Below, piece by piece: positions 13,238 through 53,478 of a DNA stretch of 64,000 bases. The position numbers and the translations under genes were made by a program. Below the pieces are notes generated by a model. That model ran no database searches. It was not told where the DNA came from and was given only the letters and a program-made list of their open reading frames with translations. The DNA is taken from contig CBDDHT010000001.1 of NCBI GenBank assembly GCA_965228615.1, forward strand, positions 242,371 to 306,370, given 5' to 3'. The DNA comes from Methyloligellaceae bacterium (lineage in GTDB: Bacteria > Pseudomonadota > Alphaproteobacteria > Rhizobiales > Methyloligellaceae). The stretch's first letter is position 1; the number at the start of each line of letters is the position of its first letter.

Positions 13238-13244
13238 CGACACC

Positions 13245-17428: not shown

Positions 17429-17492
17429 GGTCAGCAACGAGACCTCCGAATAATCACCCTTGCAGCAATAAAGAGGCCGCTGAACAACGACC

Positions 17493-17506
17493 TTGATATT
17501 TATCAA
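17493..17506. promoter_or_regulatory. FNR/FixK/NnrR-type box TTGAT-N4-ATCAA upstream of nosR
   Basis: Perfect palindrome TTGATATTTATCAA lying 65-78 nt upstream of the proposed nosR start codon. Confidence 0.7.
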
Positions 17507-17786
17507 TTCTCGCGAAAAGCTGGAGGTATCAATCGTCTGGGAATTGAATTCGGACGGCCTGTTCTCTGGCCTGTCGTCTCTATGCGAGGCTCGGATGTTG
17601 AGCCCAGGGCAGCGCGCTATTGCTTCGGCCCTGGGGTAACTCTTGCCACGCCAACCAGCGCCCTTCAGACGGACGTGAGTCGACGAGATCAATCTGCGCT
17701 TAGTCGGAAACGACTAAGCGCAGAAAAGTTGATCGATTCTAAGCTGCTAGAGCAAATTATGTGCGTCTGACAAAACGCACGTTGCT

Positions 17787-27102: not shown

Positions 27103-27816
27103 ATGTTTCCGGATCTAGAGGCCCGCGATCGCCAACCAGAGATCATGGATCAGCTGGACCTCGACCCAGCCCGCTTCGTCGGATCGCTCGCCGGTCTTCG
27201 CCGCATCAATCGTGTCACGGGAAGCGCGCGCATTCTGTGGCCCGACCTGGTTGAAGCGGCACGATCGAAGCCGGACGGGAAACTGACGGTGCTGGATGTC
27301 GCCTGTGGGGGTGGAGATATCGTTGTATCCCTCTCCAGAAAGGCAAAAAAAGCCGGTTTGCCAATGACCTTTTCTGGTTTTGACGTCAATCCATTGGCCG
27401 TCGAGACGGCTCGACGGCATGCGAGGGCATCCAAGGTCGACGCCAAATTCTACACAATGAATGCGACCTCCGACGCGTTTCCTGACGACTCGGATGTCGT
27501 CATGTGCTCGTTCTTCCTCCATCATCTCCCCCAGTCGCAGGCGACCGGTTTTCTGCGCCGTGCAGCGGAGAGCGCACGGGATCGTCTCCTCGTGCACGAC
27601 CTTGTACGTGCACCGGCAGGTTATCTTCTGGCAAAGGTCGGCACGGTCGCTTTGCTGTGCAACGACGTCTGCCGCAAGGATGGCCCACGCTCGGTACAAG
27701 GGGCTTTCACCTGTCTGGAGGCCGAAGCTCTGTCGGATGCGGCGGGTCTCGATGGTGCTGTCATTGTCCCCCGGTTTCCCTTTCGATATCTGCTTCGCTG
27801 GGTGAGGGCTCGATGA
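27103..27816 (+). CDS. SAM-dependent methyltransferase
   Basis: Motif I VLDVACGGGD. The stop overlaps the next start (ATGA). Confidence 0.8.
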   Translation: MFPDLEARDRQPEIMDQLDLDPARFVGSLAGLRRINRVTGSARILWPDLVEAARSKPDGKLTVLDVACGGGDIVVSLSRKAKKAGLPMTFSGFDVNPLAVETARRHARASKVDAKFYTMNATSDAFPDDSDVVMCSFFLHHLPQSQATGFLRRAAESARDRLLVHDLVRAPAGYLLAKVGTVALLCNDVCRKDGPRSVQGAFTCLEAEALSDAAGLDGAVIVPRFPFRYLLRWVRAR

Positions 27817-28991
27817 CCGCTTGCCCCACACCGCCACCCGATCAAATGAGTTGGGACGTCGCGATTGTCGGCGCGGGCCCTGCGGGATCGTTAGCAGCCC
27901 ATGCTTTGGCTGGTTTCGGGCGGTCGGTTCTCCTCATTGACCGGGGACATTTCCCGCGGAGCAAAGTGTGCGGTGGGTGCCTGAACAGACGTGCCATCGG
28001 GGCATTGAACGAGGCGGGCCACCGGAAACTGCTAGAGGGTCTTCTTCCAGCAAAGATCGAGGCGATCGACATTGCGGCGGCTGGACGTCAGGTGCGTCTC
28101 ACACTGCCGTCCAGCCTGGCAGTGTCCCGACTTGCCCTGGACGATGCGTTGATCAATGCGGCTCGCGAAGCCGGCGCGATGGTCCTGGAAGGATGGAGCG
28201 CGACAGTCGAAAAAGGCAACGAATGTGGTTGGATGATTGCACTCCGGTCAACCGGCCAAAGACGCCGGATCTATGCGCGGGTGTGTATGACTGCTGCCGG
28301 GTTATCCGGCCGCGCGCCTCTTTGCAATGCTGCGGATGTGGACGTGATGCCGCGCTCTCGGATTGGTGCTGGCGTACTGCTCGAGCGTGATCCGATGCTC
28401 ATGAAAAGCGGCCTCGCCGCCGCGAACTCGATCTCGATGACGGTATCGAAAGATGGGTATGTGGGCGTTGCGCCCGCAGAAAATGGGCGCACGATTCTTG
28501 CTGCGGCATTAGATCCGGATGCCGTTCGTTATGCCGGTGGGCTCGGTCAGCTGGCTGGAACGATATTGTCCTCGGCCGGGCGCCCCGTTCCGGGCACATT
28601 GATCGCAGCGGATTGGCGCGGAACGCCCGCCCTGACCCGCCGCGTCCATCCGCTTGCGGGGCACCGTTCTTTGATTCTTGGCGATGCGGCTGGTTATGGC
28701 GAGCCCTTCACGGGCGAAGGTATGGCTTGGGCGATGACCGGGGCCTTGCACGCTGCCAAACTGGTTCATCTGGGCTTGGACGATTGGCGGACATCGACCG
28801 AACGCAACTGGATTTCCTGGCACAGGCAGCATATCGGCCGCTACCAGACGCGCTGTCGCCATTTTGCTCGAGGTCTGCGGCATCCGTGGATTGTCGGTCT
28901 TAGCCTTTCGGCATTGCAGCGCGCGCCTTCGATGGCGAAGCCGCTTGTTCGCTCTCTTCATACCGAAATCGATAATCGGGAGGTCGCTTGA
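27813..28991 (+). CDS. FAD-dependent oxidoreductase (geranylgeranyl-reductase/aromatic hydroxylase-like)
   Basis: Start is trimmed to MTACPTPPPDQMSWDVAIVGAGPAGS (GxGxxG). GD motif LILGDAAGY. Confidence 0.8.
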   Translation: MTACPTPPPDQMSWDVAIVGAGPAGSLAAHALAGFGRSVLLIDRGHFPRSKVCGGCLNRRAIGALNEAGHRKLLEGLLPAKIEAIDIAAAGRQVRLTLPSSLAVSRLALDDALINAAREAGAMVLEGWSATVEKGNECGWMIALRSTGQRRRIYARVCMTAAGLSGRAPLCNAADVDVMPRSRIGAGVLLERDPMLMKSGLAAANSISMTVSKDGYVGVAPAENGRTILAAALDPDAVRYAGGLGQLAGTILSSAGRPVPGTLIAADWRGTPALTRRVHPLAGHRSLILGDAAGYGEPFTGEGMAWAMTGALHAAKLVHLGLDDWRTSTERNWISWHRQHIGRYQTRCRHFARGLRHPWIVGLSLSALQRAPSMAKPLVRSLHTEIDNREVA

Positions 28992-30073
28992 TGGCCCTTA
29001 CGGTCTGTTCCATCGGCTCGGCAGTTCCCGAGCAGTCGCTGACGCGCGACGAGTCCCTTGAGGTTGCCAAACTGATGGCGCCCGAGACGAAACACAAAAC
29101 ACTCAGCAAGATCTTCTGCGGCACAGGCGTCAGAAAGCGTCACAGCGTGCTACTCAGAAAAGGCGATACAGACGATGCAGCCGTTGATTACGACCTTCTC
29201 TACACGCCTGATAATGTTGGCGACCCCGGCCCGACAACGATGGAGCGGATGCAGGTCTATCAGGACCGTGCCCATCCGTTGGCCGAAACCGCCGTTGGCC
29301 GCGCACTCCGGGGAAGCACCATTCGGATTGAGGACCTCACGCATCTCGTGATGGTGACATGCAGCGGATTCTTTGCCCCGGGCGTCGATATAGCACTCAT
29401 GAAATCTATGGGATTGCCGCGCGATCTTGAGCGGGTCCAGGTTGGCTTCATGGGGTGCCAGGGAGCTCTAAACGGTCTCCGCGTCGCCAACGGTCTGGCT
29501 GGAACACGTTCGGATGCTTGTGTCCTGTTGTGTGCGGTCGAGCTCTGCAGTGTGCACTTCCATTATGGCTGGCAGGTCGACCGCGCGGTTGCCAATGCCT
29601 TGTTTGCCGATGGCTCTGCTGCCCTGGTCGGACAATCCGATGGTAGCGGATGGAAAGTGCGCGCCAACGGTGCCTGCCTGGTCCCCCAGTCCGAAGGGGC
29701 CATGAGTTGGCGGATTGGAGATCATGGATTCGAGATGGGATTGTCGTCGGCCTTGCCGCGGATCATCGAAGCCAATTTGCGTCCGTGGCTGGCGGATTGG
29801 CTCAATCAGCACGACCTGACAATAGATGATGTAGCGACATGGGCGGTGCATCCGGGAGGCCCGAGTATTGTGCGCAGCGTACAACGAGGACTCGGTCTTG
29901 CAGACGATGCGCTCGACGTCTCATTGGGCGTCCTTCAGGAGTTGGGCAACATGTCGTCGCCGACAATTCTGTTCATCCTTGAGCGTTTGCTCGCTGCAGA
30001 TGCGGAGCTTCCTTGTGTCGGTTTGGCATTCGGTCCCGGACTGTCTGTCGAAGCCGTTTTGTTCGATGAATGA
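28991..30073 (+). CDS. type III polyketide synthase (chalcone/stilbene synthase family)
   Basis: Catalytic Cys in VTCSGFFAPG, His in WAVHPGGPSI, Asn in GNMSSPT. The ATG overlaps the upstream TGA (TGATG). Confidence 0.9.
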   Translation: MALTVCSIGSAVPEQSLTRDESLEVAKLMAPETKHKTLSKIFCGTGVRKRHSVLLRKGDTDDAAVDYDLLYTPDNVGDPGPTTMERMQVYQDRAHPLAETAVGRALRGSTIRIEDLTHLVMVTCSGFFAPGVDIALMKSMGLPRDLERVQVGFMGCQGALNGLRVANGLAGTRSDACVLLCAVELCSVHFHYGWQVDRAVANALFADGSAALVGQSDGSGWKVRANGACLVPQSEGAMSWRIGDHGFEMGLSSALPRIIEANLRPWLADWLNQHDLTIDDVATWAVHPGGPSIVRSVQRGLGLADDALDVSLGVLQELGNMSSPTILFILERLLAADAELPCVGLAFGPGLSVEAVLFDE

Positions 30074-30192
30074 CCTGTTATCAGCCTGTTCGAGACAAAA
30101 TATCGTCATGAATCTGGTTAACACTAAGACTGTGCAGACTAAGAATTGTGCAAGGTCGATCGTTCGAAGATGCCACCCAAAGGGAGGGGATC

Positions 30193-30345
30193 ATGGGCGT
30201 TATCGCACCGACTGCAATGACCCTAACGCCAGACATGTCACCCTCGGGTGCATTCTTCAGAGCGTCACGCCGCCGGACACTGTCTGACGCGGCGCCAAGC
30301 ACGGGGATCGAAGTCTTCCGAGCCTTCGCTACCGACAACCACTAA
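30193..30345 (+). CDS. hypothetical 50-aa protein downstream of the PKS operon
   Basis: The ATG is preceded by a strong GGGAGGGGA Shine-Dalgarno at -4. No recognisable motif. Confidence 0.3.
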   Translation: MGVIAPTAMTLTPDMSPSGAFFRASRRRTLSDAAPSTGIEVFRAFATDNH

Positions 30346-30555: not shown

Positions 30556-32826
30556 GTGACGCGATTTGTAAGGCTATTGATGTGTGCGTGCCCATTGATC
30601 GGCGGCGCCTATCTTCTTCACCAAGGACAACTTCTACCATTGAGCAAGCCGGCGCTTGCCGATGAGCGGAAAACACCGCCGGCAACGGGAACGGCTCATA
30701 ATCAGGGCATGCCCGTTCTCGCAGCTCAGTTGAAATCCTATCTGGCGTCCTCAAGCGGGGAGCCACAGGCGCGGCGGGTGGCTGCAAATGAAGAGAATGC
30801 TTCGCAGTCGGACGATCTCCTGGCGCCTGCTAGAACAAGCAACGATACTGAAAGCACGGCTGTAAAACCCGAAACCGGTGATGACCTTCTGTCCGGTCCC
30901 GAGGTTGTCGGCGGCAAGCCGCAACCGACCAATGCTTCTGATGATGCCGCAAACGCGCGCCAGATCGACGAGCTCCTGCAACAATCGGATGAGTCGGAAA
31001 AGAAGGCCAAGGAGAAGGCGCCGAAAGCCGCCGCTGCAGGCGACGGGGAGAAAAATTCTCTGTCGGCCGACGAGGAGCATCTCCAGCTTTTTGCAGAAAA
31101 CCGATATCCATCGGCCGCGACATGCGGGATCTGCCATCCCAAACACTACAAGGAGTGGTCGGTCTCCCAGCATGCTTACGCGCAACTGAGCCCGATCTAT
31201 CTCTCCCTCAATAACAAGATCAATGCTCTGTCGAATGGGTCGAACGGGGACTTCTGCCTTCGTTGTCACAGCCCGATCGGAGCGAATCTCGGCGAGAGTT
31301 CATTCGCATCGAATCTGGATCGCCATCCGGCCTCGCGCGAAGGTATCACCTGTGTCGTCTGCCATCGTATCAACAAGCCTTACAACAAGGTCAGCGGTCG
31401 TCTCGCACTCGTCGAGGGCGGTCTGACCGACCCGGTCTTTGGGCCTGACGGAAACTCGGGTGTGAAGCAGGTTCTGGACGATCCGAAGAAATTCCGCGTG
31501 GTCACCGACCCAAAGGAACCAGGCCGAAAAATCCACGCCAAGGCGAAGCTGTTCGAACCCATCAAATCAGCGACGTTCTGCGGCAGCTGCCACGACGTAA
31601 CCTTGTTCAACGGTTTTCGGCTCGAAGAGGCGTTCAGCGAGTACCGCGTCTCGCCCGCTGCCGCCAAGGGGATTACCTGCCAGGACTGCCATATGGGCAA
31701 GATCCAGGGGAAGGTATCCGGTTACGCGCAAGGGCCTGCGGCTGTCGTCGGCGGCGTGCCGACAAAGAAGCGCAAGCTCACCAGCCATCTCTTCTCGGGA
31801 CCCGACTATCCGGTCATTCATCCCGGGATCTTTCCGCATAACCAGGAAGCAGCCGCCTTTAAGACGTTGCGCCAATGGTTGGAGTTCAAGCACAAGGAAG
31901 GATGGGGCACCGACAAGTTCGAAGACTCGGTTCCCAAAGGATACAAATTCCCGAAAGCGTGGCAGTCAGTCGATGATCGCTATGACGCGCGTGAAATTCT
32001 CAACAAGCAGTTCGAGCTTCTCGAATTTGCCAAGCGGAAGCGTCTCGAAGTCCTGAAGGTTGGCTTTGTCCTCGGCGACATTGAGGTCAAGAAGTCCGAT
32101 CCGAGCGGTATCAAGTTCCGCGTGCAGGTCAGAAACGGCACCGACGGACACAATGTGCCGACCGGGTTTACCGGTGAGCGGCTGATCTGGCTGGACGTGA
32201 CGGTCAAGGACCGCGACGGCAAAGTCGTCATGCGCTCTGGTGACCGCGATCCAAGCGGTGACGTGCGGGATAATCATTCCGCCCATGTTCACGCCGGGAA
32301 GGTGAAACTCGATAAACAGCTCTTCAGCTTGCAGTCGCTTTTCGTCACGCAGAATGGTCGCGGCGGAGAAATCGAGCACGTTATCCCGATCCCGTTCCCG
32401 AGCTTTGCCTTGCCGCGCGTGCTGCCATCGACAACGTCGCTTATTTTTACCGGCGAGCCGGCAACGGAACGAAACCACAAGAAGGGTATCGAGCCGAATG
32501 GCGAGCGTTGGGCGACGTACAAGGTCAGCAGGTCCGCAATGACCGGCAAAGGTCCATACACCGCGACGATCAAGCTCAAGGCCCAAGCCGTGCCGATCAA
32601 TCTCCTGCAGGCCATCCAGAGTGTCGGATTCGACTACGGGATGACACCGAAAGAAGTCGGCACGGAGCTGATCGCCGGAACGCAGGTTCTTTGGAAGAGG
32701 CAGATCAAGCTTGATGTGACGCCGTCACAGACAACTCGTCCGCTCGTGGCTCCGTCCGTTCAGCGATCCGGATCGAAGGAGAGGAGAGGAGAGGGTCTGT
32801 CGTGGGACGATGCCAACGGCGGATGA
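30556..32826 (+). CDS. secreted pentahaem c-type cytochrome
   Basis: Five CXXCH motifs (CGICH, CLRCH, CVVCH, CGSCH, CQDCH). The GTG at 30556 has GGGGAG 8 nt upstream and yields the signal peptide VTRFVRLLMCACPLIGGAYLL..ALA. Start is uncertain (TTG 30529 or ATG 30580 are possible). Confidence 0.8.
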   Translation: MTRFVRLLMCACPLIGGAYLLHQGQLLPLSKPALADERKTPPATGTAHNQGMPVLAAQLKSYLASSSGEPQARRVAANEENASQSDDLLAPARTSNDTESTAVKPETGDDLLSGPEVVGGKPQPTNASDDAANARQIDELLQQSDESEKKAKEKAPKAAAAGDGEKNSLSADEEHLQLFAENRYPSAATCGICHPKHYKEWSVSQHAYAQLSPIYLSLNNKINALSNGSNGDFCLRCHSPIGANLGESSFASNLDRHPASREGITCVVCHRINKPYNKVSGRLALVEGGLTDPVFGPDGNSGVKQVLDDPKKFRVVTDPKEPGRKIHAKAKLFEPIKSATFCGSCHDVTLFNGFRLEEAFSEYRVSPAAAKGITCQDCHMGKIQGKVSGYAQGPAAVVGGVPTKKRKLTSHLFSGPDYPVIHPGIFPHNQEAAAFKTLRQWLEFKHKEGWGTDKFEDSVPKGYKFPKAWQSVDDRYDAREILNKQFELLEFAKRKRLEVLKVGFVLGDIEVKKSDPSGIKFRVQVRNGTDGHNVPTGFTGERLIWLDVTVKDRDGKVVMRSGDRDPSGDVRDNHSAHVHAGKVKLDKQLFSLQSLFVTQNGRGGEIEHVIPIPFPSFALPRVLPSTTSLIFTGEPATERNHKKGIEPNGERWATYKVSRSAMTGKGPYTATIKLKAQAVPINLLQAIQSVGFDYGMTPKEVGTELIAGTQVLWKRQIKLDVTPSQTTRPLVAPSVQRSGSKERRGEGLSWDDANGG

Positions 32827-32895
32827 CGTTTAAGACTGCGCAACGGACAACGATCTGATTGCGAAAAACGCGTTTCGAAAACGAAACCGACAGGG

Positions 32896-34545
32896 ATGAA
32901 GTCAGGAATGAAGCAACTTGTTCGCACGAGGAGTGTTCCCTATGCCGCAACACTCCTCTTGGGATTGGCCCTCCTTGTGGCCGGTACGGATCCGGGGCTG
33001 ACCCAGTACAAGCAGAAGACCTATAAGCCACAGAAAACGGAGAAGTCGGGCAAGTCCGACAAGCTGGTAAAGCATGAGGAGAAGAGACCTTGGTATCGCT
33101 GGTTCTGGCCGCTGGGAGACCGCGTCGAGGTCGAGGAACTGAAGGACGAGTATGTTCCGTTCAAAACGGAGAAGGGCCTTCAGACGCCGGACCAGAAACA
33201 TGATACGGCGGACTTGAAGAACAAGGTATCCGATGCAGAACCAGGCCCGGGCGGAAAGGACACGGCCCGTCTTCCGTCCCGCCCCAAACTCCTTCTTGAG
33301 TTGGGGAACGGCTTTCTGGATACGGGTAATCTGTCACCGGGCTTTGAAGTGCCAATTATTGGTGCGGTCTGGCAGCCGCGGCTCTGGGCTTATCTGATCA
33401 ATCGAACGGCCTTCCAGTCCTTCGATAGCGGCCGGTCGGGCGCTGAGCGCGAGACGGAGATCGCCAACCGTCTGGACTTTTTCGCAAACCTTCAACTGAC
33501 TGGAACGGAAAAGATCCTGCTGGGTATCCGCGCAACGGATAACAACCGGCCTGATCGATTTACCCGCTACACGTTCGACGGGGCCAGTGAGGGCTTCAAC
33601 GACGAGTTCACGGCCAGCGTCGAGACTCTGTTTTTCGAGGGAGATATCGGCAGTCTCTTCCCGGTTATCGATAGGCAGGGTGTGAGGCCCTGGGATCTCG
33701 GCTTTACCGTCGGTCGCCAGCCGCTCGTCTTTCAGGAAGGGATCCTGATCAACGATACAATCGATGCGGTCGGTCTGATCCGCAACAACATCCCGTTTCC
33801 AGGCACATCGAACTTCAGGGTCTCGGCCATGTGGGGCTGGAACCGACTCGATCGCAACGACATCTCGCGCGATCCGGGCGATGAAGACATGTTCGGTCTC
33901 TTCATCGCCGCAGATACGCATCTCAGTACGTACAATCTCGATCTGATCTATGTAAACGACTCCGGTAATGGCGACGGGCTCTATATCGGTGCATCGGCGA
34001 TCCAGCGTCTTGCGGTGCTGGGCGGCCTGAGTACCGCATTCCGGATCAATACATCGATTGCTCTGGAAGACGAGATCCCCGGCAATGTCGTTGGAAACGG
34101 ATCGTTGTTGTCAGCCGAGTTCTCGAAGAACGTCAAAGAGTCGGACGACATCGTCTACTTCAACTCCTTCCTGGGGATCGGTAACTTTACCCAGGCCGGC
34201 CGCGAAGCGGTTGTCGGTGGCCCTTTGGCCAATACGGGCATTCTGTTCGCCTCGCCAAGCCTCAGCACCTATCTGTCGGAGCTTGATCCTTTCACCACGA
34301 ACAGCGTGATCGGTGGTGCCGTCGGCTATCAGGCATTCTGGGACAACAAGCGGCGGAATCTCATTCTCGAAGTGGCAGGCCGTCACGATCTGAGCGGAGA
34401 CGGCTTCGACAGCGTCGCCATCGGCGCGCAATTGCAGCAGGCGCTTGGGCGCCATGTGCAACTGCAGTTCGAGACCTACTACGCCCTCAATGAAGACCGC
34501 CCGGATGGTTACGGGGGCCGTGCCGAAATACAGGTTGTCTACTGA
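32896..34545 (+). CDS. putative outer-membrane beta-barrel protein (porin/alginate-export-like)
   Basis: Sec signal (AATLLLGLALLVAG). The rest is rich in alternating hydrophobic/polar beta-strand patterns, G/N/D turns and aromatic girdle residues. C-terminus is ..AEIQVVY. The family name was not verified. Confidence 0.5.
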   Translation: MKSGMKQLVRTRSVPYAATLLLGLALLVAGTDPGLTQYKQKTYKPQKTEKSGKSDKLVKHEEKRPWYRWFWPLGDRVEVEELKDEYVPFKTEKGLQTPDQKHDTADLKNKVSDAEPGPGGKDTARLPSRPKLLLELGNGFLDTGNLSPGFEVPIIGAVWQPRLWAYLINRTAFQSFDSGRSGAERETEIANRLDFFANLQLTGTEKILLGIRATDNNRPDRFTRYTFDGASEGFNDEFTASVETLFFEGDIGSLFPVIDRQGVRPWDLGFTVGRQPLVFQEGILINDTIDAVGLIRNNIPFPGTSNFRVSAMWGWNRLDRNDISRDPGDEDMFGLFIAADTHLSTYNLDLIYVNDSGNGDGLYIGASAIQRLAVLGGLSTAFRINTSIALEDEIPGNVVGNGSLLSAEFSKNVKESDDIVYFNSFLGIGNFTQAGREAVVGGPLANTGILFASPSLSTYLSELDPFTTNSVIGGAVGYQAFWDNKRRNLILEVAGRHDLSGDGFDSVAIGAQLQQALGRHVQLQFETYYALNEDRPDGYGGRAEIQVVY

Positions 34546-34605
34546 CATCTGCGCCGCTGCACGAAGTCTGAACGATGGCCGACAGCGAATGAAGGAAACG
34601 ATGAC

Positions 34606-35889
34606 ATGCAGACATCATTGATGATCGAGATCGGCGGACTGCTGATCATGAGTGCTGCGACACTCAAGGCCGCGGCGAGTGCGACAGCTCTGGCAGGACG
34701 ACGAATGAAGCTGTCTCGTCTCAACAAGGAATATATTCGGGAGTTCGATCGGCTGGCGGCCCGCAGTTTCCGAGCACAATCAGCCAAACGATTGACGCAT
34801 GAACAGGCGTGGCAGGGCACGCGCAAGTTTCGTGTCGAACGGAGAATTTACGAGGATCATGCGAAAAGCGTCTGCTCATTCTATCTTGTGCCTTACGATG
34901 GGCGGCCGCTTCCACCCTTCGAAGCGGGGCAGTTCCTCACCTTCAAGCTAACCGTGCCCGGACAAAAGCAGACGGTCGTTCGCTGCTATTCCCTGACCAG
35001 TAACCCGGCAGAGCAGCGTTACTATCGCGTGTCGATTAAGCGGATTGCGGGGGCGCCAGGCGATGCCGCAGTCCCGCCAGGGATCGCGTCGAACTACTTC
35101 CACGATCATCTGCGGGAGGGAGCCATTGTCGAGGCTTATGCGCCTTCAGGCGACTTCGTCCTCGATCGGAGTTCGGAAAAACCAATTGTCTTTATCGCCG
35201 GGGGGGTCGGGCTGACTCCGTTCATGAGCATGCTGCACCAGTTAAGTGCCGAAAATTCACCGAGGGAGGTGTGGCTCTTCTATGGTACGCGCAACAGCGG
35301 CGAGCATCTCATGCGGGGGCATCTCGAACATGCCCGCAAATATCATCCCAAATTCAGGACCGTGATTGCCTATAGCCGGCCAACCAAGGCCTGCCGGCGC
35401 GGCGTCGACTACGACGTCGCAGGTCATATAGGCGCTCCTCTCATGGAGCCTCTGCTGAAGGCGAGAGAGTGCGAGATCTATGTTTGCGGCCCTGGAGGGA
35501 TGATCGACACGGTCACACGGGATCTCGCCCGCCTCGGAATTCCGCAGGAGAATGTGAAGCTCGAAAGATTTGCCGAGGCGACGACAGGGCGTGAAGGCAC
35601 GCCTCCGCCCGATCCGAATGTGGAGAGTGGCGGTCGCTTCAAGGTTGCGTTCGTTCGGTCCGGCGTGACGGGAAACTGGTCCGCGGACGGCGGGTCTCTT
35701 CTTGAGTTCGCGGAAGCCGAGGGCATCAAGGCTCGTTGCGGATGCCGCCAGGGGATTTGCGGGATGTGCGCGACGCCGGTTCGGCAGGGCGAGGTCACTT
35801 ATCTCAGCCGTCCTGCAAAGGAACCGGCGCAGGGCACCTGCCTGCCGTGTATCACTCGGCCGAAGAGCGATTTGGTTTTGGAGCTGTAG
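34606..35889 (+). CDS. membrane-anchored FNR-type flavin reductase with C-terminal 2Fe-2S ferredoxin domain
   Basis: N-terminal TM. FAD/NAD modules (RCYSLTS, FIAGGVGLTPF). C-terminal cluster motif CRQGICGMC...C. Confidence 0.8.
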   Translation: MQTSLMIEIGGLLIMSAATLKAAASATALAGRRMKLSRLNKEYIREFDRLAARSFRAQSAKRLTHEQAWQGTRKFRVERRIYEDHAKSVCSFYLVPYDGRPLPPFEAGQFLTFKLTVPGQKQTVVRCYSLTSNPAEQRYYRVSIKRIAGAPGDAAVPPGIASNYFHDHLREGAIVEAYAPSGDFVLDRSSEKPIVFIAGGVGLTPFMSMLHQLSAENSPREVWLFYGTRNSGEHLMRGHLEHARKYHPKFRTVIAYSRPTKACRRGVDYDVAGHIGAPLMEPLLKARECEIYVCGPGGMIDTVTRDLARLGIPQENVKLERFAEATTGREGTPPPDPNVESGGRFKVAFVRSGVTGNWSADGGSLLEFAEAEGIKARCGCRQGICGMCATPVRQGEVTYLSRPAKEPAQGTCLPCITRPKSDLVLEL

Positions 35890-36004
35890 CGCCAACTGGG
35901 GAGGCTCGAAAGAGTCTCCCACTTTTTTGGCGGTTTATGGTTGCGTTGGGATCTCTGGTGGCAATCGCTGGATCGTGCCGTTTGGCTGGTGCGATATGGT
36001 TTGA

Positions 36005-36100
36005 TGGTGCCGTGGTTTTAGATTTGAGTTTATTTCGCTCACGGCTAATCCGCGCTTTGCGCGGGCCTCCGCGGGGGCGCCCTGACCGGGCGGCGGCCAC
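36005..36100. repeat. inverted partial copy of the 181-bp repeat unit
   Basis: gatttgagtttatttcgctcacggct..ggcctccgcggggg..cctgacc is the reverse complement of the unit core at 36240-36320. Confidence 0.85.
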
Positions 36101-36200
36101 TTGGCCTTGCCTCGCTGGTCGCTCGGTTATTCATGGTTCCATGAGAGATGGTGCCGTATGGCTGGTGCTATGCGGCACGATTTTCAGTGTGTCTGAGACA

Positions 36201-36720
36201 ACCGCGCCATAGTGGCGCGGCAAGCGCGACCGCGCGCCGGCCGGTCAGGCCGCCCCCGCGGAGGCCCGTGCCGTAGGCACGGAACAGCCGTGAGCGAAAT
36301 AAACTCAGATCTCCAACCCACGACACTATCCCACCGGACAGCACCGGCGTATTTCTCCAATGCCACACGTGAACAAGGATCACCGCGCCATAGTGGCGCG
36401 GCAAGCGCGACTGCGCGCCGGCCGGTCAGGCCGCCCCCGCGGAGGCCCGTGCCGTAGGCACGGAACAGCCGTGAGCGAAATAAACCCAGATCTCCAACCC
36501 ACGACACTATCCCACCGGACAGCACCGGCGTATTTCCCCAATGCCACACGTGAACAAGGATCACCGCGCCATAATGGCACGGCAAGCGCGACTGCGCGCC
36601 GGCCGGTCAGGCCGCCCCCGCGGAGGCCCACGCCAATGGCACGGAATAGCCGCGAGCGAAAAAACTCAATTCTCAAACCACGGCACCATCCCACCGTGTC
36701 GCACTGGCCAAAACAACCTC
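36201..36720. repeat. tandem array, about 2.9 copies of a 181-bp GC-rich hairpin-containing unit
   Basis: The anchor accgcgccata recurs at 36201, 36382 and 36563. Copies 1 and 2 differ at only a few positions; copy 3 is diverged and runs up to the stop of the decahaem gene. Confidence 0.9.
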
Positions 36721-36724
36721 CGCC

Positions 36725-39157
36725 TCACTTCTTCACGCCGGGAATCTTCGTCATCGTAATCGGCGTCGTGACGCCATCCACATGATAGGTGTGGCACAGA
36801 AGACAATCTTCGCGCGCGACATTGTTCCCATGGCATTCGCTACAGGTCTGTTTTTTTACGGGCTTGAAGTTGGAGCGAAAGTTCTTCGGATCATGCGCCT
36901 TGTAGCTGTCCATGAACCCCGCCTTGTCGTCCAGCGCGTGACAGGTCAGGCACCCGCTCTTGCCGGCAACCAGCCCGAAATGCGGTTCATGATTGAACGC
37001 CGTGAACTTGCTCGCCCGAGTGTTGAGCGATGACGGGCTCCAGTTGACGCGGCGACTCTCGCCTTTGCCCTGATCCACACTGTGGCATTTGGTACATTGA
37101 CCCTGAGCGTCCTTGCTGCTGAGGAGTGCGAATACGGGAGCGACAAGATCGAGCTCCTTAGGACCTGAAAGCCGCCCGGAGAAATCCAGCCAGGAGCGCA
37201 AGAATCCATCGGCATGTCCTGTGGGCTTATAAAGAATCGCGTAGTCCATCCGATACCAGCCACCGAACTCGGCCCAGCTCTCAGGATCGACGGTTGTCGT
37301 ATCACTGGCGCGATCGATCTCCGAGGGCTCTTCTCTTGCCTCGGTTTCTTGAGCGGCCGTTTCGGGCTTCGATTGTTGATCCGGTTCCGCCGCTTCAACC
37401 GGCTCGTCTTCGGGTTTATCGCGTTGTTCTGTGTCTTCGGCACTGTCCGTGTTCTCGGCAGGTCTGTCACCCTTGACGAGATTACCGAACGCATCGATCC
37501 GCCAACGTTCCGACGCCACTCTTGTGCGGTGGCGCGAGGGCTTGGTCTCTATCCGCGATTCTCTCTTAGGTGCTTCTTTGCCTGGCGTAGCAGCGGGCGG
37601 TGCGGTTGTGTCTTTGTCTGGCTCAGGCGTATCGGCGGCACCTGCCAGTCGGTCTCGCATTTCCTGGCCAAGATTGGGGAGCCATTCGCGCTGAGCGTTC
37701 ACGAAAACGTCGTGCGGCATATTAGCCGTCAGTTTCGCGATCAGGTCGGCGTCGATCTCGGCTTCGGACGCTGCTCCAATCTTGTTCAGCACTTGCGACA
37801 TCTTTGATGTCACGAGTGAATAAACAAGGGATTTGATTTCCCAAACCAGGCGTGTGACGGCTTTCAGTTCCAGATCCGATGCTTCGGTCAAATCGAGCAG
37901 GTCGAGATCAGCGATTGTCTGGAGCATCGCGCGTCGCTCTTCATCACGCCCTATGAGCAGCTTCATCAAAGGCGTTATTTCCGCCTCCGATTCAACTGGC
38001 CAAGTACCGATCTGCGCATTCTTCTCCTTCAATGTCTCGACATCGAGACCGGGAAGCGTAAGGAGCGCGATCCCTTTTGGCCCTGTGGCGCGGTCGTCAC
38101 CGACGATCTGGCCGAGATGGCATGAGGAACAAGCCTCGGCAAAGGGTTTGACGGCCATATGCCGGCCTTCCGTGCCGCTCGTGTGGCAATCGGCACAATC
38201 ACCGGGAACGGACTCTTTTTCTTTACCGCCTTTGGCTGTCAGTTCGGGGAAGTGCTTTCCGAAATGACCGCTATGATCGAACGCAATCCGCGTGCGCCGG
38301 CGGAACGGGAAATTGTCGAATTCGGGGTGGTCTTTGCTGAAACTGCTGAATTGCATCTTGTGGCAGGTATGACATCGCGCATCGGACATGGTCGTGAGAT
38401 CGACCATTTTTCCCTGATGCTCCTGATGGCACGAGGCGCAGAAGATGTCGCTTTTTCCAGAGGCGTCGATGGGGAACAAGGTGCTGGACAATCGTGCAAA
38501 GGCAGATGCGGACTTCGATGTAACCTCCGGCTCGAACGACCTACTGATCTGCACCAGCTGCGCTTCGCTCAATCCATGCGGTTTCAGCTCCGAGCCCGGC
38601 ATTTTGTGGCATGTCAGGCACGCCCGACTGTCTGCTGTTGAATCCGCTGTGGCCACAATTGAATGGATCCAGCCAAGCTGGCCGTCTCCGACATTCGTGT
38701 GGCAACTCTTACAGTCACCAACCGGGCCGTGTGCTGTCGTGAGCGGTCCTGGGCCCAGAATCTTCGGGTCTTGTGCATATGTTAAGAGCAGTGCGACGGC
38801 GCCCGCCGATACGGCTGCCACCCATTTCGCCACGAGTTCCCGCCTCGCACGGAGTGTGCGGACCGGCTTGCATGGCGGCTCGGCAATCCGGCAGCTTCCG
38901 TCCTCGTTGGGACCATCGGCACAGGGGCCGCCATCGGCGTCGCGGCGCTGGCAATGCCATTCCGAACCGCTCTTCTCGGGCTCACAGGCAAAGCGCGAAC
39001 CGCAGCGCCCACGAGCACTCGGTCCCGCTCGGCAGGCCTCGTTCGGACCGAGGCGCCCACACATCCAGGCGTGGACAGCGCGGTCCTGGCTCCTGGGGCC
39101 GGCCTTCGGTTTGCGGTTACGGAACAGCTGAGGAATACGCATAGACAGCTGCCACAT
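36725..39157 (-). CDS. membrane-anchored decahaem c-type cytochrome
   Basis: Ten CXXCH motifs (CKSCH, CLTCH, CASCH, CHTCH, CADCH, CSSCH, CTKCH, CLTCH, CSECH, CLLCH). One TM (VAAVSAGAVALLLTY) follows a Cys-rich N-terminal segment. Start is uncertain (39157, 39142 or 39064). Confidence 0.8.
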   Translation of the reverse strand: MWQLSMRIPQLFRNRKPKAGPRSQDRAVHAWMCGRLGPNEACRAGPSARGRCGSRFACEPEKSGSEWHCQRRDADGGPCADGPNEDGSCRIAEPPCKPVRTLRARRELVAKWVAAVSAGAVALLLTYAQDPKILGPGPLTTAHGPVGDCKSCHTNVGDGQLGWIHSIVATADSTADSRACLTCHKMPGSELKPHGLSEAQLVQISRSFEPEVTSKSASAFARLSSTLFPIDASGKSDIFCASCHQEHQGKMVDLTTMSDARCHTCHKMQFSSFSKDHPEFDNFPFRRRTRIAFDHSGHFGKHFPELTAKGGKEKESVPGDCADCHTSGTEGRHMAVKPFAEACSSCHLGQIVGDDRATGPKGIALLTLPGLDVETLKEKNAQIGTWPVESEAEITPLMKLLIGRDEERRAMLQTIADLDLLDLTEASDLELKAVTRLVWEIKSLVYSLVTSKMSQVLNKIGAASEAEIDADLIAKLTANMPHDVFVNAQREWLPNLGQEMRDRLAGAADTPEPDKDTTAPPAATPGKEAPKRESRIETKPSRHRTRVASERWRIDAFGNLVKGDRPAENTDSAEDTEQRDKPEDEPVEAAEPDQQSKPETAAQETEAREEPSEIDRASDTTTVDPESWAEFGGWYRMDYAILYKPTGHADGFLRSWLDFSGRLSGPKELDLVAPVFALLSSKDAQGQCTKCHSVDQGKGESRRVNWSPSSLNTRASKFTAFNHEPHFGLVAGKSGCLTCHALDDKAGFMDSYKAHDPKNFRSNFKPVKKQTCSECHGNNVAREDCLLCHTYHVDGVTTPITMTKIPGVKK

Positions 39158-39929
39158 GAAGGAGAATGAAGACGATCATGCAATAGGTTGCGGGGATGTG
39201 GATGAAGAGCCAGATCTGAAGCGCGCCCTGGTGTGCGTAATGCGAGTCGAGCGCATCCTTCTCAATGACGAATTCTCTGATCTCGTTGAGGAGCTTTCGT
39301 CCGGACTCGTCGACATATTGATCGACCGAATCGATCTCGTCACAGAGTCTTCTGAGCGGTCGTTTCGAGCCTCTGAGATGCGAGAGGAGATTGCGCGGCT
39401 GATGGAAAAAGGCGTGGAGCTGACCGGAATAGAGTTCCGAGATGGCCATCGATCCGGCATGGTTGACCGAGTCAATCGCAAGAGCGCCGGCCTGCTTGGC
39501 GAGCATGGATTGGAATGCCGGAATGCGTTCGAACGCGATCGGCTCGGTTTGGCGCTCCAGCTTGGTCGGAATAGCCCAGGTCAGATAGGCGCCAACCACA
39601 CCACTGGTTGCGACAAGCAAGAAGAGCAGCCAAAGGACCCATTCGAGGAAATAGTCGGGCATGGAAAAGCTGGTGTGAGAGAGAAAGGCCGCAATCACGA
39701 AATAGCCGACAAAGATGTGCGCATTGAGCCACGATGCCGCCGGGCCGACAGACAGTGCGGCCGACTTCTTGCGCAGATGGAAGAAGAACTGCCCCGCAAT
39801 GCCGGCGGTCAAGAACCAACCATCCAGGTATCTCGGGTCGCGAAGCGCCGCGTCATAGAGCCCGACGAGCCAATAGAGCAGCACGATCGCGGCCAGGGTG
39901 ATTGCGATATTTTGCAATCCGTATCTCAT
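39117..39929 (-). CDS. integral membrane protein, unknown family (possible b-haem carrier)
   Basis: About 5 TM helices then a ~110-aa soluble tail. Lies 3 nt after the upstream stop and overlaps the downstream cytochrome start. Confidence 0.6.
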   Translation of the reverse strand: MRYGLQNIAITLAAIVLLYWLVGLYDAALRDPRYLDGWFLTAGIAGQFFFHLRKKSAALSVGPAASWLNAHIFVGYFVIAAFLSHTSFSMPDYFLEWVLWLLFLLVATSGVVGAYLTWAIPTKLERQTEPIAFERIPAFQSMLAKQAGALAIDSVNHAGSMAISELYSGQLHAFFHQPRNLLSHLRGSKRPLRRLCDEIDSVDQYVDESGRKLLNEIREFVIEKDALDSHYAHQGALQIWLFIHIPATYCMIVFILLHVAAVYAYSSAVP

Positions 39930-39932
39930 GAC

Positions 39933-41555
39933 CTACGCCCGTGCGATCCAGTCGTTGAGCGTCCCGGTATCGCTCATGTCGATCCGTATGAGTGCGCCAT
40001 GCGGGCAGGCTCGCTGACATGCCGGTCCGTTGGTCTGCCCGGCGCAAAAATCGCACTTGGTAGCGCGGAGAATTTGCGAACCGTCCGTATCAATATGCCG
40101 TGTCCCGTTGGCGTCGCGGACGGCTTCCATCCGGATATTGCCGTAGGGGCAATTGCTTGCGCAGGTTGCACAGCCGACGCACGATGCGTCATCGATTACG
40201 ACACCGCCGCCGTCGGTTGCCCGCTGGATCGCGCCGGTCGGGCATCCAATCAGGCAGACCGGGTCGACACAGTGCATGCAGGCATTCGCAATCATGAGGT
40301 TTCCATGCGTTGGGCCGTGCCGGACAAAGCGCGGAAAACCGGCATGGGTCGCGGCGCAGGCCCGCACGCAATCGTCGCAGTCCACGCATCGGGTGGTATC
40401 GATCGCCATTGCCCGCGTTCCATTGACGAAGCGGTTGTCGACGAAGAAGTCCATCATGGGCTGGGGAAGGTTTGACCTCTCGCTCGCTGACTGCCGCGAT
40501 CTTTGACGGTCATTGGATCTCGACGTGCCGGTTGTCTCAAGAATTGGCTCGGCGACCGGGCCCGGTATGCGAATGACGTTGGCAAAACCCATCGCCCTGA
40601 GACTGTGCGGTGCGCGCGGCGCGTCGATCGACAGTCGGCTTGTAGCGATTTCGTCGTGTCCGAATATCTCGCCCGCTTTCAGATAACCCGTCGTTCTCTC
40701 GCCATTTCCGAAGGGCTGACTGAGCCGCGCAAACCCGGCTTGGAGAAGGAGAATATCATCGAGATAGTGTCCCTGCTCGACGATCATGGGTTCGCTGTTC
40801 AAGATTGCAGACCGGGCATCATTGTCTTGCCGCGCGCGCTGGAATATGTGCGACCAGCTGAAGTCACCGTAGGTCTCGACACGGCAGAAACCGGCAATAG
40901 TTTCCAGGGTATCGTCGTTGACGTCTGCCAATTGCAACCATGACCGCAGACCGCTTCTGAGGCTGCGCTCGCGGTAGTGTCGATCAATGACGGTCCGGAA
41001 AGATGCGGACCAGTCGCGAAGGTCGCGAAGTGCAGCCCAGCGCAGCTCCAGCAGTTCGGTCCGGTCCTCCGCGACGACCATCGTATGGCTCCGAGGACTT
41101 CTCGTCATCGCCTCGGTGACACCGAAAACCTCGCTCGCGGCCACGATGTCCTGGGACTGTTGTCCGGTGGGTCTCGACGCTGGCCCAGTGGGCTTCGGCT
41201 GCTTCCAGACTTGTTTGATCTGCAGCCAGGTCTTTTTCTCGCTCGCAGTTTCCTGGGGAACGTCATTCGTTTTGAGAAAGGGAGACAAGCGCTCAACCGA
41301 TCCGCGCAGAACAAGAAATACCGAATTGCCATAGTTGCCCTGTCGAAAGACAACGTCTCCCTTTGATGCGCGCAAGACACGCGTATCGTTGGCCAGGATA
41401 TGATCGAGCGGAAGATCGGCCGGAAAATCATCGCCATCGACCTCACTGAACAGAGGCAATCTTCTGAGTTGAGCGACATCTCTCGCCGACAACGGCGCAT
41501 GACCGTACGGTTGATCCCAGCGGCGCGGCCGTCTGACGATGCGGGCTTGAGCCAT
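39933..41555 (-). CDS. two cyclic-nucleotide-binding domains fused to a 4x[4Fe-4S] ferredoxin (NrfC/DmsB-like) domain
   Basis: cNMP-binding-like segments (VVFRQGNYGNSVFLVLRGSV.. ; ..GYLKAGEIFGHDEI). C-terminal CVDCDDCVRAC, CMHCVDPVCLIGCP, CVGCATCASNCP and CDFC..CQRACP. No Tat signal. Confidence 0.75.
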   Translation of the reverse strand: MAQARIVRRPRRWDQPYGHAPLSARDVAQLRRLPLFSEVDGDDFPADLPLDHILANDTRVLRASKGDVVFRQGNYGNSVFLVLRGSVERLSPFLKTNDVPQETASEKKTWLQIKQVWKQPKPTGPASRPTGQQSQDIVAASEVFGVTEAMTRSPRSHTMVVAEDRTELLELRWAALRDLRDWSASFRTVIDRHYRERSLRSGLRSWLQLADVNDDTLETIAGFCRVETYGDFSWSHIFQRARQDNDARSAILNSEPMIVEQGHYLDDILLLQAGFARLSQPFGNGERTTGYLKAGEIFGHDEIATSRLSIDAPRAPHSLRAMGFANVIRIPGPVAEPILETTGTSRSNDRQRSRQSASERSNLPQPMMDFFVDNRFVNGTRAMAIDTTRCVDCDDCVRACAATHAGFPRFVRHGPTHGNLMIANACMHCVDPVCLIGCPTGAIQRATDGGGVVIDDASCVGCATCASNCPYGNIRMEAVRDANGTRHIDTDGSQILRATKCDFCAGQTNGPACQRACPHGALIRIDMSDTGTLNDWIARA

Positions 41556-41780
41556 TTTCCCTCCTAGATGCTTTGTTCCCGACGGGTCGGCCGCTGCCGT
41601 TCAAACGTTGGGAAAATTAGGGAGATGAGACTCGCGTGATGCACCCTTCGTGCACCCCGCTATTCTCTCACTCTAGCAATATCTATAGGTCCTTCTTTGG
41701 CCGCTTTGCGTGATTGCAGAGACCATAGTGGGGCAACAAATGGATCGACCCATGCCTGTCATGCATTGTGCCTGTCACGT

Positions 41781-42830
41781 CTATTTCACAGGCTTGCCTT
41801 TGTATTTCTTCGGAAGCGGAACGAGAGCGTCGATGCCCGCAAACCTCTTGCCGTCATATTTCGCGACGATCGTCAAAGCCTGCTCTGCAATCTTGTCGGC
41901 CGCCGCGGACAAAGCTTTGTTGTTGTTGAGTTTTAGTCCGGCCGATTTCGAAATGCCGACGATCGTGGCCAGCTCCGGGACATTGGGGAGCGCCTGGGAT
42001 ACGGCGGCCATCTTCTTGCGAGCGGCGGCCGCCCGGCGCGCCATCTTCACCGCGTAGGATTTGCGCTCGGTCGCCACGCCGACCGCGCGCAGGGCCGTCT
42101 CGAGTTCGACGGCAACGCCTATGATATAGAGCATGCGTTTTCGGCCGGGACTGGCTTTCGTATTCGACTTGCCTTTGGAGTACCAAAGGTTGTGTCTCAC
42201 TTCACCTTGAGACCAGGAGACGAGTTCGAATTCGCTTCCAGCCGGATGGCCGCCGACATTGACCAGCTTTTCCTGCGGGACCACATGGCAGCCATAGCAG
42301 TTCTTCGCGAGCGCATAGGTGGCGCTCGGCCGGATCATGCCGAGTTTTTCCGATTTCTTCCAACGTGATTTCGCTTCGGCCTTGCTCTCGGTTTCTTTCT
42401 TCTTACCGCTAAACTCGCTGTGAAGCTTCTCCCAATCCTTGCCGCCGCCGTGACAGGATTCGCAGGAGATGCCGGCAATTGTCTTTTTTCTTTTGCCGGT
42501 TTTCTGCGTCGTGAAATGACAGTTCAGGCAGAGACTTTTCGCTTTGATGCGCTTGATGCCCATTTTCTTGGCAATGCGCGAAGCTTCCTTGTTTCGCGGC
42601 ATCTCGCGGAAAGTCTTGAAGTGGTGTGTGCCGCGCCAAACGGTCGTCTCCTCCTTGTGACACTCGCCACAGGCATTAGGGCCGGTGACCTTGGTCGGAT
42701 CGGTATCCGATCGCGCAAGGGCGAGTGGTGCAAACTCGAAATTTGCCCCCCAAAGCATGAGATGTAGAAGCAGTATCGTGATCGTCGATAGACTTGATTT
42801 CGTAAGACCCAATGCCATGTCTCTCTTCAT
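41781..42830 (-). CDS. secreted tetrahaem c-type cytochrome
   Basis: Signal peptide (SLSTITILLLHLMLWG..ALA). Four CXXCH motifs (CGECH, CLNCH, CESCH, CYGCH). Confidence 0.8.
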   Translation of the reverse strand: MKRDMALGLTKSSLSTITILLLHLMLWGANFEFAPLALARSDTDPTKVTGPNACGECHKEETTVWRGTHHFKTFREMPRNKEASRIAKKMGIKRIKAKSLCLNCHFTTQKTGKRKKTIAGISCESCHGGGKDWEKLHSEFSGKKKETESKAEAKSRWKKSEKLGMIRPSATYALAKNCYGCHVVPQEKLVNVGGHPAGSEFELVSWSQGEVRHNLWYSKGKSNTKASPGRKRMLYIIGVAVELETALRAVGVATERKSYAVKMARRAAAARKKMAAVSQALPNVPELATIVGISKSAGLKLNNNKALSAAADKIAEQALTIVAKYDGKRFAGIDALVPLPKKYKGKPVK

Positions 42831-53477: not shown

Positions 53478-53478
53478 G

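Follow-up and report, generated by a model that had tools for sequence, protein, structure and literature searches.

The window examined in this work, a stretch of 64,000 nucleotides from the genome of a Methyloligellaceae bacterium (assembly GCA_965228615.1, contig CBDDHT010000001.1, positions 242,371 to 306,370 of the forward strand), contains seven genes that constitute a Methyloligellaceae-type copy of ptdABCDEFG, a named but uncharacterised gene cluster. In the window the cluster is laid out as two convergent operons, ptdABC and ptdDEFG, and these form one conserved unit. The encoded proteins suggest a quinone-independent electron transfer chain, similar to the NADPH oxidases (NOX), that exports electrons of NAD(P)H to an acceptor located at the outer membrane or entering through it. 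We rate this reading somewhat above even, with a probability of roughly 0.55.

A preliminary description of this DNA had listed seven open reading frames (ORFs), all of which were recovered with the same positions and strands. On the plus strand, ptdA (30556-32826) encodes a secreted pentahaem cytochrome c, the start of which may be GTG at 30556 or TTG at 30529. After a gap of 69 nt it is followed by ptdB (32896-34545), encoding a putative outer-membrane beta-barrel with 18 strands in the model and outside described families. The third gene, ptdC (34606-35889), encodes a largely cytoplasmic protein in which an N-terminal membrane anchor precedes an FNR-like domain for FAD and NAD(P)H and, at the C-terminus, a 2Fe-2S ferredoxin domain of the plant type. 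On the minus strand lie ptdD (41781-42830), for a secreted tetrahaem cytochrome of c554 type; ptdE (39933-41555), for a cytoplasmic protein with two cNMP (cyclic nucleotide monophosphate)-binding-like domains and a ferredoxin domain of the DmsB/NrfC/HydN type; ptdF (39117-39929), for a five-helix inner-membrane protein and predicted dihaem cytochrome b; and ptdG (36725-39157), for a decahaem cytochrome anchored in the inner membrane. Hydropathy and N-terminal sequence gave signal peptides on PtdA, PtdB and PtdD, one transmembrane helix in PtdG, a polytopic PtdF, and a PtdE without export signal. The total of nineteen haem c sites is borne out by the CxxCH motifs, five in PtdA, ten in PtdG and four in PtdD, and these numbers recur in the orthologues (five in 64 of 64 PtdA, ten in 46 of 48 PtdG and four in 51 of 51 PtdD sequences).

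Families were sought in Pfam and NCBIfam, by sequence search of the PDB, and with Foldseek on AlphaFold2 models. For all seven proteins, every match to the equivalog models in Pfam/NCBIfam (DmsE/MtrA, NrfC, DmsB, NrfH and flavohaemoglobin) lay far under the curated cut-off, and the PDB sequence search returned nothing meaningful for PtdB, PtdG and PtdF. The remark in the preliminary description that none of the proteins is a canonical MtrA/MtrB or NrfC/NrfD thus holds, with HMM (hidden Markov model) matches far under the cut-offs and a barrel without family.

The one solved relative of PtdA, the pentahaem c552 of Thermochromatium tepidum (5ZE8), led to the publication in which the cluster is named after its penta-, tetra- and deca-haem proteins and reported from marine hosts including Alphaproteobacteria of the UBA11136 group (bioRxiv 10.1101/2023.11.21.568154). 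In that paper PtdB is a porin, PtdC an FAD/NAD(P) oxidoreductase, PtdD a tetrahaem protein, PtdE a cNMP-binding iron-sulfur (FeS) protein, PtdF a ferric-reductase-like membrane protein and PtdG a decahaem protein, and the homology of PtdA to c552 is noted (bioRxiv 10.1101/2023.11.21.568154). The seven protein types of the window correspond to this description one for one: ptdB follows ptdA directly and its product is modelled with a barrel fold, in agreement with a porin, and the types of PtdC, PtdD, PtdE, PtdF and PtdG are all present. Homologues from the taxa and sample series of that paper, such as a Saanich Inlet Rhodospirillaceae (L074), are 53-68% identical. The function is described there as "completely unknown", with porin-cytochrome electron transfer or nitrogen cycling floated as ideas (bioRxiv 10.1101/2023.11.21.568154); the interpretation as a conduit has therefore already been published for this type of cluster, as a hypothesis. 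The tables of the paper also report transcription in two metagenome-assembled genomes (MAGs) from an oxygen-deficient zone (ODZ), with ptdA at about 900 and ptdB at about 510 FPKM (fragments per kilobase per million mapped reads), and list the cultured carriers Roseibium aggregatum, Tistlia consotensis and Sulfidibacter corallicola (bioRxiv 10.1101/2023.11.21.568154). No further mention of the ptd cluster was found in the literature searched.

Several features differ from the published account. The published operon is a single colinear A-B-C-D-E-F-G series, whereas the window copy is split into ptdABC convergent with ptdDEFG; the colinear order was also seen in the current work, in loci L051, L052, L054, L059, L063 and L069. 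The taxon range agrees with that published, but Hyphomicrobiales/Methyloligellaceae hosts are absent from the table of the paper. PtdE, credited there with two 4Fe-4S clusters, has 16 invariant cysteines that indicate four. PtdG, described there as periplasmic, is anchored by a transmembrane helix, and roughly half of its copies also carry an 8-Cys domain on the predicted cytoplasmic side. The window thus holds another ptd copy, with a convergent layout and a Methyloligellaceae-type host, and not a new kind of system.

The conservation of the cluster was studied by scanning a profile of PtdB against one genome per species, which returned 80 loci, and by mapping all seven proteins onto these with tblastn and ORF mapping; in the scan of species representatives, 153 stretches were found to encode a PtdB relative. 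The hosts belong to the Hyphomicrobiales (Methyloligellaceae, Hyphomicrobiaceae, Anderseniella, Filomicrobium), Rhodospirillales, the "MarineAlpha" groups, Methylococcales and Nitrospinota, and the nearest locus, L002, comes from a Methyloligellaceae MAG with proteins 90-97% identical to those of the window. In 77 of 78 loci ptdA stands immediately upstream of ptdB. Where at least 9 kb could be read on either side of ptdB (33 loci), 23 loci carried all seven genes, 8 all but ptdE, and 2 only ptdA and ptdB. Three arrangements were found, namely convergent as in the window, colinear, and with ptdDEFG upstream of ptdABC; the convergent split is typical of most Hyphomicrobiales loci and the colinear form occurs in others, so that gene order varies within the ptd family. 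Identity to the window co-varies across loci among PtdB, C, D, E, F and G (Spearman 0.58-0.87). That the two operons are one system, as had been proposed, is thus supported both by the 31 of 33 fully flanked loci with at least six genes and by their joint divergence. PtdA and PtdB are the most conserved members, with median identities of 68% and 64%, versus 41-43% for PtdC, PtdD, PtdE and PtdF. Among the 80 loci the flanking genes of the window recur only in L002, its 97% relative, and clustering of all neighbouring ORFs gave no eighth conserved gene, only lineage-specific neighbours (an NADP-type glutamate dehydrogenase, CcmH/CycH and one cyclase).

The proposal that PtdB is an outer-membrane beta-barrel was upheld by structure prediction. 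The protein has a signal peptide, a conserved N-terminal extension (WYSWFWPLGDRVEV..., GAVWQPRLW) and the C-terminus ...RAEIQVVY; the database entries start four codons later, giving 545 aa. Its homologues, with identities of 50-97%, have neither names nor Pfam domains and share an aromatic last residue and invariant internal motifs. Neither the single sequence nor 27 homologues matched any Pfam or NCBIfam family, MtrB/PioB included, at E-values up to 5. In exact-sequence look-ups the window PtdB and P0001 were not on record, and a cluster look-up gave no names. The AlphaFold2 model built from 27 sequences, with a low mean pLDDT (predicted local distance difference test score) of 57, shows 18 strands over residues 162-548. 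Foldseek matched it only to 18-strand outer-membrane barrels (MOMP, OccAB/OccK of the OprD family, AlgE, Wzi and ScrY), at E-values of 1e-11 to 1e-7 and TM-scores of 0.5-0.6 on the target. This low-confidence model supports a fold of the 18-strand OprD/AlgE/MOMP-like class and not a sheath of the MtrB type, in which 26 strands are needed to enclose MtrA (PMC7198977). With 18 strands against 26, PtdB would be a channel or docking barrel rather than a cytochrome sheath.

After its signal peptide, PtdA has about 140 aa of low-complexity linker, then the domain with the five haems and, towards the C-terminus, a beta-sandwich with an invariant GHNVPTGF loop; the model places beta-strands in the C-terminal half. 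PtdA and PtdD match cytochrome c554-type domains in Pfam/NCBIfam, and c552 is the sole solved relative of PtdA by both sequence and fold. The core of PtdA is 70-87% identical among 30 homologues, and the N-terminus shows a Sec signal peptide in the alphaproteobacterial copies and a lipobox in those of Nitrospinota. The same fold occurs in MccSep, a pentahaem selenoenzyme and polysulfide reductase of Geobacter with the alternative gene name extKL (bioRxiv 10.1101/2025.11.18.688581). PtdA shares with the c552/MccSep family the five-haem cap, the Ig-like stem fold and the loop GH-x-[VI]-P-x-G-X, which bears selenocysteine in MccSep; it differs in being about 300 aa longer, with its N-terminal linker and a larger C-terminal region. 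Profile alignment places the invariant GHNVPTGF over GHSIPDGU of MccSep, with phenylalanine at the selenocysteine (Sec325). The haem-ligating Cys239 of MccSep falls on an invariant leucine in HDVTLFNGFRLEEAFSEY of PtdA, in a weak alignment that the CxxCH motifs on either side hold in place. No non-haem cysteine is present in mature PtdA, and the gene has no in-frame TGA. With Phe and Leu at the Sec and Cys positions and no non-haem cysteine, PtdA is, as judged from these alignments, a member of the c552/MccSep fold family without the catalytic Cys and Sec of MccSep, and would not be an enzyme of the MccSep type. With its very high conservation, eight invariant non-motif histidines and invariant "active-site" region, PtdA may be catalytic. 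In Geobacter, extKL adjoins a porin-like gene, extI.

In the cytoplasmic and inner-membrane part of the system, the FNR-type and 2Fe-2S domains of PtdC were confirmed by Pfam matches to FAD_binding_6, NAD_binding_1 and Fer2; PtdC matches the reductase half of the flavohaemoglobin model with 229 bits, under the cut-off, and Cys380, Cys385, Cys388 and Cys415 are invariant in the orthologues. Its membrane anchor also stands: the N-terminal segment is kept in 54 orthologues (mean Kyte-Doolittle value 1.98) and followed by Arg/Lys, and is weakly hydrophobic (1.58) in the window copy. PtdE likewise has cNMP-binding-like domains and four CxxCxxCxxxC-type groups, with Pfam matches to cNMP_binding and 4Fe-4S dicluster domains. 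All 16 cysteines of the four groups are invariant in 39 orthologues, and the FeS domain aligns with the four-cluster proteins HydN, DmsB, DsrO and NrfC; four [4Fe-4S] clusters, and not the published two, are therefore predicted.

PtdF had no Pfam/NCBIfam match in its window copy. Among 28 orthologues, matches below threshold recur to DUF4405 (19), Ni_hydr_CYTB (16) and Ferric_reduct (3). Two histidine pairs, His71/His85 and His244/His258, are invariant (98-100% of 48 orthologues), each with a spacing of 14 residues and each in one transmembrane helix. Four invariant histidines so placed indicate a dihaem protein, and PtdF is predicted to be a transmembrane dihaem cytochrome b. An Arg/Lys-rich loop of about 120 aa should face the cytoplasm by the positive-inside rule.

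In PtdG an N-terminal 8-Cys domain (residues 33-96) and a transmembrane helix (108-126) come before a periplasmic six-haem module, which is separated from the four-haem module by about 340 aa of spacer, a stretch of it of low complexity. The haem spacing of 31/60/22/58/22, a gap of 205-604 aa and then 47/36/13 is kept in 46 orthologues, a pattern of a six-haem and a four-haem module joined by a variable, often low-complexity spacer. The 8-Cys domain, encoded at 38870-39061 on the minus strand in the window and predicted to lie on the cytoplasmic side, is found in roughly half of the orthologues, those of Nitrospinota among them, and is absent from the others. It contains W-x-C-G-R...C...G-P...C...C-x-P repeated twice and matches no family; a metal or an FeS cluster may be bound here on the cytoplasmic face. 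No correlation was seen between the loss of PtdE and the presence of this domain. PtdD has a C-terminal Lys/Ala-rich domain and four invariant non-motif histidines, which suggest that all four of its haems are bis-His ligated; in PtdG, as in PtdD, the invariant histidines are numerous enough for such ligation.

From the gene set, the conserved cofactor motifs and the co-inheritance, all of which are observed directly, we infer an order of carriers, a direction of flow, a type of acceptor and a physiological role. PtdC would take electrons from cytoplasmic NAD(P)H through FAD to its 2Fe-2S cluster and pass them on to PtdF, with the four FeS clusters of PtdE as intermediates or, in systems that lack PtdE, without them. 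The two b haems of PtdF would carry them over the inner membrane, and PtdG with its ten haems and the soluble PtdD with its four would form a periplasmic relay. PtdA with its five haems, together with the PtdB barrel, would be the terminal module, in which PtdB, too small to sheathe a cytochrome, may serve as a specific channel or docking site for an oxidant or product. Overall, the system would be akin to a split NADPH oxidase or ferric reductase (or to Fre-MsrQ) with an extension that reaches the outer membrane. Outward flow is favoured because NAD(P)H is a strong reductant and the membrane potential aids the exit of electrons; with Fe(II), Mn(II), nitrite or sulfide as donor, inward flow to NAD(P)+ would run counter to the redox potential and to the membrane potential alike. 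Since outward flow dissipates the membrane potential and bypasses quinones, a non-respiratory role seems likelier than dissimilatory respiration; candidates are the uptake of iron or manganese by way of reduction and other reductions at the surface or in the periplasm. As candidate acceptors, Fe(III), Mn(IV), iodate, sulfur species and O2 fit the present data equally well. The 20 haems of MtrCAB span 185 Å (PMC7198977), so that 19 haems with the flexible linkers of PtdG and PtdA could bridge the periplasm; this favours the outer membrane over the periplasm at large as the site of the terminal reaction.

Known systems resemble parts of this chain. In NOX/FRE and Fre-MsrQ, as proposed for ptd, an FNR-type NAD(P)H flavoprotein feeds a cytochrome b with two His pairs on two helices, and electrons flow outward without quinone. 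The ptd system differs in its separate polypeptides, in the additional 2Fe-2S and 4x[4Fe-4S] carriers, and in the 19 c-type haems and the outer-membrane barrel that lie downstream; PtdF has five helices and its similarity to Ferric_reduct, DUF4405 and Ni_hydr_CYTB is sub-threshold. The Hmc, Tmc and DsrMKJOP complexes of sulfate reducers also connect the two sides of the membrane without quinone, by way of a multihaem cytochrome c in the periplasm, a cytochrome b in the membrane and an FeS protein in the cytoplasm, and the FeS domain of PtdE resembles DsrO/HmcB at sub-threshold scores, but ptd lacks the CCG-type HdrD-like and NrfD-like subunits and has a flavoprotein and an outer-membrane component. 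Similarity to NrfCD or Alternative Complex III is not sustained, as PtdE has no signal peptide and PtdF has five helices and no NrfD match; the NrfC, DmsB and DsrO models match only the FeS domain of PtdE, far under their cut-offs. A quinol- or NAD(P)H-linked inner-membrane module had been suggested for the window. The parts named there (a cytoplasmic reductase of NAD(P)H type, an FeS protein, a membrane subunit, multihaem proteins in the periplasm and the barrel) are all present; the quinol option is not supported, as no quinol-dehydrogenase family was found.

A number of observations weigh against the proposed export chain. Each step of the mechanism is predicted from sequence and models, and the direction of flow comes from thermodynamic reasoning. 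The models of PtdB and PtdA are of low confidence (mean pLDDT 57 and 51), so that the strand count of PtdB depends on a modest model and on Foldseek. The binding of haem b by PtdF is deduced solely from conserved histidines, and PtdF could also hold a quinone site. The gene ptdE is missing from, and so dispensable in, about one quarter of otherwise complete loci, and ptdAB has none of the other genes nearby in 2 of 33, so that the chain may be modular. The hosts are mostly aerobes without known metal reduction. Upstream of ptdA no iron-, oxygen- or NO-responsive operator was found: among 59 loci, operators of the Fur, Irr/ICE, RirA, NsrR, NnrR and OxyR types were not above shuffled sequences, and FNR/CRP-like boxes occurred in 5 loci (0.75 in shuffles), at scattered positions and not in the window.

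Of the alternatives, an insulated conduit of the Mtr/Pcc type for dissimilatory Fe(III)/Mn(IV) respiration, with a cytochrome inside the barrel and minerals outside as acceptors, is the best placed, although it appears unlikely. Multihaem proteins and an outer-membrane barrel occur together, as pointed out in bioRxiv 10.1101/2023.11.21.568154; PtdA is a lipoprotein in the Nitrospinota copies; and a carrier MAG, MnTg02 (L014), is abundant in an abyssal Fe-Mn crust community, which is circumstantial. MtrCAB, PioAB and MtoAB likewise join a multihaem chain to an outer-membrane barrel with about 20 haems, a number sufficient to span the envelope. The resemblance to Mtr/Pio/Pcc conduits drawn in the preliminary description is nevertheless not supported: the modelled barrel has 18 strands and not 26, matching neither MtrB/PioB nor another porin family, and the decahaem PtdG is anchored in the inner membrane and not sheathed in a barrel. 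Neither do the cytochromes belong by sequence, no protein reaching the DmsE/MtrA cut-off (TIGR03508; 27 and 24 bits against 192). The CymA/NapC-type quinol dehydrogenase that feeds those systems is missing, and the input looks NAD(P)H-linked through FeS proteins and cytochrome b. In addition, PtdA and PtdB are far more conserved than is usual for wire and sheath proteins.

An enzyme system for nitrogen oxides (NO, nitrite or hydroxylamine), tied functionally to the nos genes at 8.5-17.7 kb of the window, is improbable. It would fit the c554-like PtdD, the closeness of PtdC to the reductase half of the NO-inducible flavohaemoglobin, and the occurrence of ptd among nitrite oxidisers and nod-transcribing bacteria of the ODZ; the invariant Leu and Phe at the MccSep Cys and Sec positions would, in that weak alignment, suit a capped distal pocket. 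However, the nos genes, earlier described as near, are 13 kb away, with unrelated genes for VWA, MscS, PPK2, aldehyde dehydrogenase, efflux (HlyD, MFS) and polyketide synthase proteins intervening, and no nos gene occurs within 10 kb of ptdB in the 80 other loci. NO requires no outer-membrane channel, there is no CxxCK haem or other hallmark of NrfA/HAO (NrfA/NrfH matches are far under the cut-off), and no NsrR/NnrR-like operator was found. Slightly less probable again is electron uptake, in which PtdA and PtdB would oxidise Fe(II), Mn(II), reduced sulfur or a cathode and electrons would run inward to NAD(P)+. Carriage of ptd by lithotrophs (Nitrospinota, Methylococcales) and by Fe-Mn crust MAGs, and the ties of the PtdA fold family to sulfur chemistry, speak for it. 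NAD(P)+ is reduced at -320 mV, and such flow would presumably oppose both the redox potential of the donors and the membrane potential; the cluster contains no coupling site or proton pump, and PtdA, unlike the sulfur enzymes MccSep and TsdA, has neither non-haem cysteine nor selenocysteine. The last alternative, that two unrelated operons merely converge and the 19-haem system is an artefact, finds some ground in the opposite strands and the 835-bp repeat-filled spacer of the window, but is refuted by the co-location in 31 of 33 fully flanked loci of several phyla, many of them colinear, and by the co-varying divergence.

The export chain from NAD(P)H also admits a more specific form, which we offer as tentative and less likely than not: ptd would be a new class of NAD(P)H-driven, quinone-independent trans-envelope reductase, in which a NOX-like module is wired by 19 haems to a catalytic PtdA and PtdB is a channel delivering an oxidant typical of seawater. 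Candidates, as part of the same tentative claim, would be Fe(III) in ligand-bound or colloidal form, oxides of Mn, iodate, and O2 reduced to superoxide. The ptd cluster occurs widely among bacteria of marine and saline settings, in several phyla, and is transcribed in an oxygen-deficient zone. If electrons of NAD(P)H are indeed exported to the cell surface, this would be a route of metal or oxidant reduction independent of the respiratory quinone pool, unlike the Mtr and Pcc paradigms; if the new class exists, it could be the source of iron reduction by marine bacteria, or of superoxide formed outside their cells, that has so far lacked an explanation. The testable predictions added here are a small barrel, a dihaem cytochrome b, four FeS clusters, a tethered PtdG with a 6+4 haem layout and a PtdA with the MccSep fold but without the catalytic residues of MccSep.

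A conserved promoter-like block lies at 30100-30192 on the plus strand, about 430 nt before ptdA. It contains a sigma-70-like TTAACA-17-AAGAAT (30118-30146), a direct repeat GTGCAG-N10-GTGCAA and then the Shine-Dalgarno sequence GGGAGGGGA. In the window, L002, L004, L005, L006 and L008 the distance from this block to ptdA is 280-430 nt; as their proteins are only 64-77% identical, a long regulated leader is suggested. Behind the conserved Shine-Dalgarno is a short ORF of 50 aa (30193-30345, plus strand). In relatives only its first residues, M-x-x-I-[A/E]-P, recur, and lengths range from 21 to 52 aa; it may be a leader peptide or may be untranslated. As an eighth conserved protein it was rejected, the peptide being conserved only in L002 (92%). 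A terminator-like hairpin followed by a T-run is found at 35899-35920 on the plus strand, 10 nt past the ptdC stop. The convergent spacer between ptdC and ptdG, 835 bp in length, is rich in repeats: a tandem array at 36201-36696 has a 181-nt unit in 2.8 copies with 93% matches, and an inverted partial copy lies at 35981-36115. A 25-nt core of this repeat has four copies there and none elsewhere in the window, and the 97% relative L002 lacks the tandem array. Rfam gave no match over 30.0-43.5 kb, spacer included.

Some neighbours of ptd are specific to lineages. In one clade a glutamate dehydrogenase gene (ELFV_dehydrog; copies 77-84% identical to each other) lies beside or inside the cluster, in L078 (6089-7513), L047 (11479-12858), L049 (5838-7217), L055 (2637-4007), L039 (1556-2947) and L059 (1-525). 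Both strand and site differ from locus to locus, the gene standing either upstream of ptdA or in the interval from ptdB to ptdC; a role in supplying NADPH is conceivable, as is a chance association. A dCache-domain adenylate/guanylate cyclase gene directly upstream of ptdA (L047, 5399-7243, with fragments in L049 and L072) is confined to one lineage and is of interest because PtdE has cNMP-binding domains. Several Hyphomicrobiales loci have a CcmH/CycH-type cytochrome c biogenesis gene divergently upstream of ptdA: L041 (6226-7554), L070 (6171-7307), L073 (2761-3987) and L029 (6399-7610). The MAG OFTM70 contains two ptd clusters (L055 and L064) that differ in gene order, a hint of paralogous systems serving distinct roles. 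In a Methylococcales MAG (L071, 8311-9713) ptdA is seemingly split into two ORFs, stands beside an integrase-like gene and is accompanied by ptdB only; this ptdAB may be a decaying copy.

Other genes of the window lie outside the ptd cluster. The nitrous-oxide reductase cluster (8575-17692, minus strand) encodes a NosR-like protein (FMN_bind/Fer4_5), NosZ, NosD, an ABC-2 membrane protein and ApbE. A ptd-nos link was considered and rejected, no nos homologue being present in the 80 loci and the window flanks being shared only with L002. Directly upstream of ptdA, at 27103-30073, are genes for a methyltransferase-like protein, an FAD-dependent oxidoreductase-like protein and a type III polyketide synthase (chalcone/stilbene synthase domains), also shared only with L002. 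On the other side of the cluster, six consecutive minus-strand ORFs of 400-500 aa occupy 49292-57617, mostly without Pfam match and one of them trypsin-like. They are followed by genes for a trypsin-like protein (58331-60511) and a matrixin-type M10 peptidase (60567-61514). Within this region (49292-61514) the G+C content falls from about 0.58 to 0.45-0.52 past 56 kb, a drop that may mark an island.

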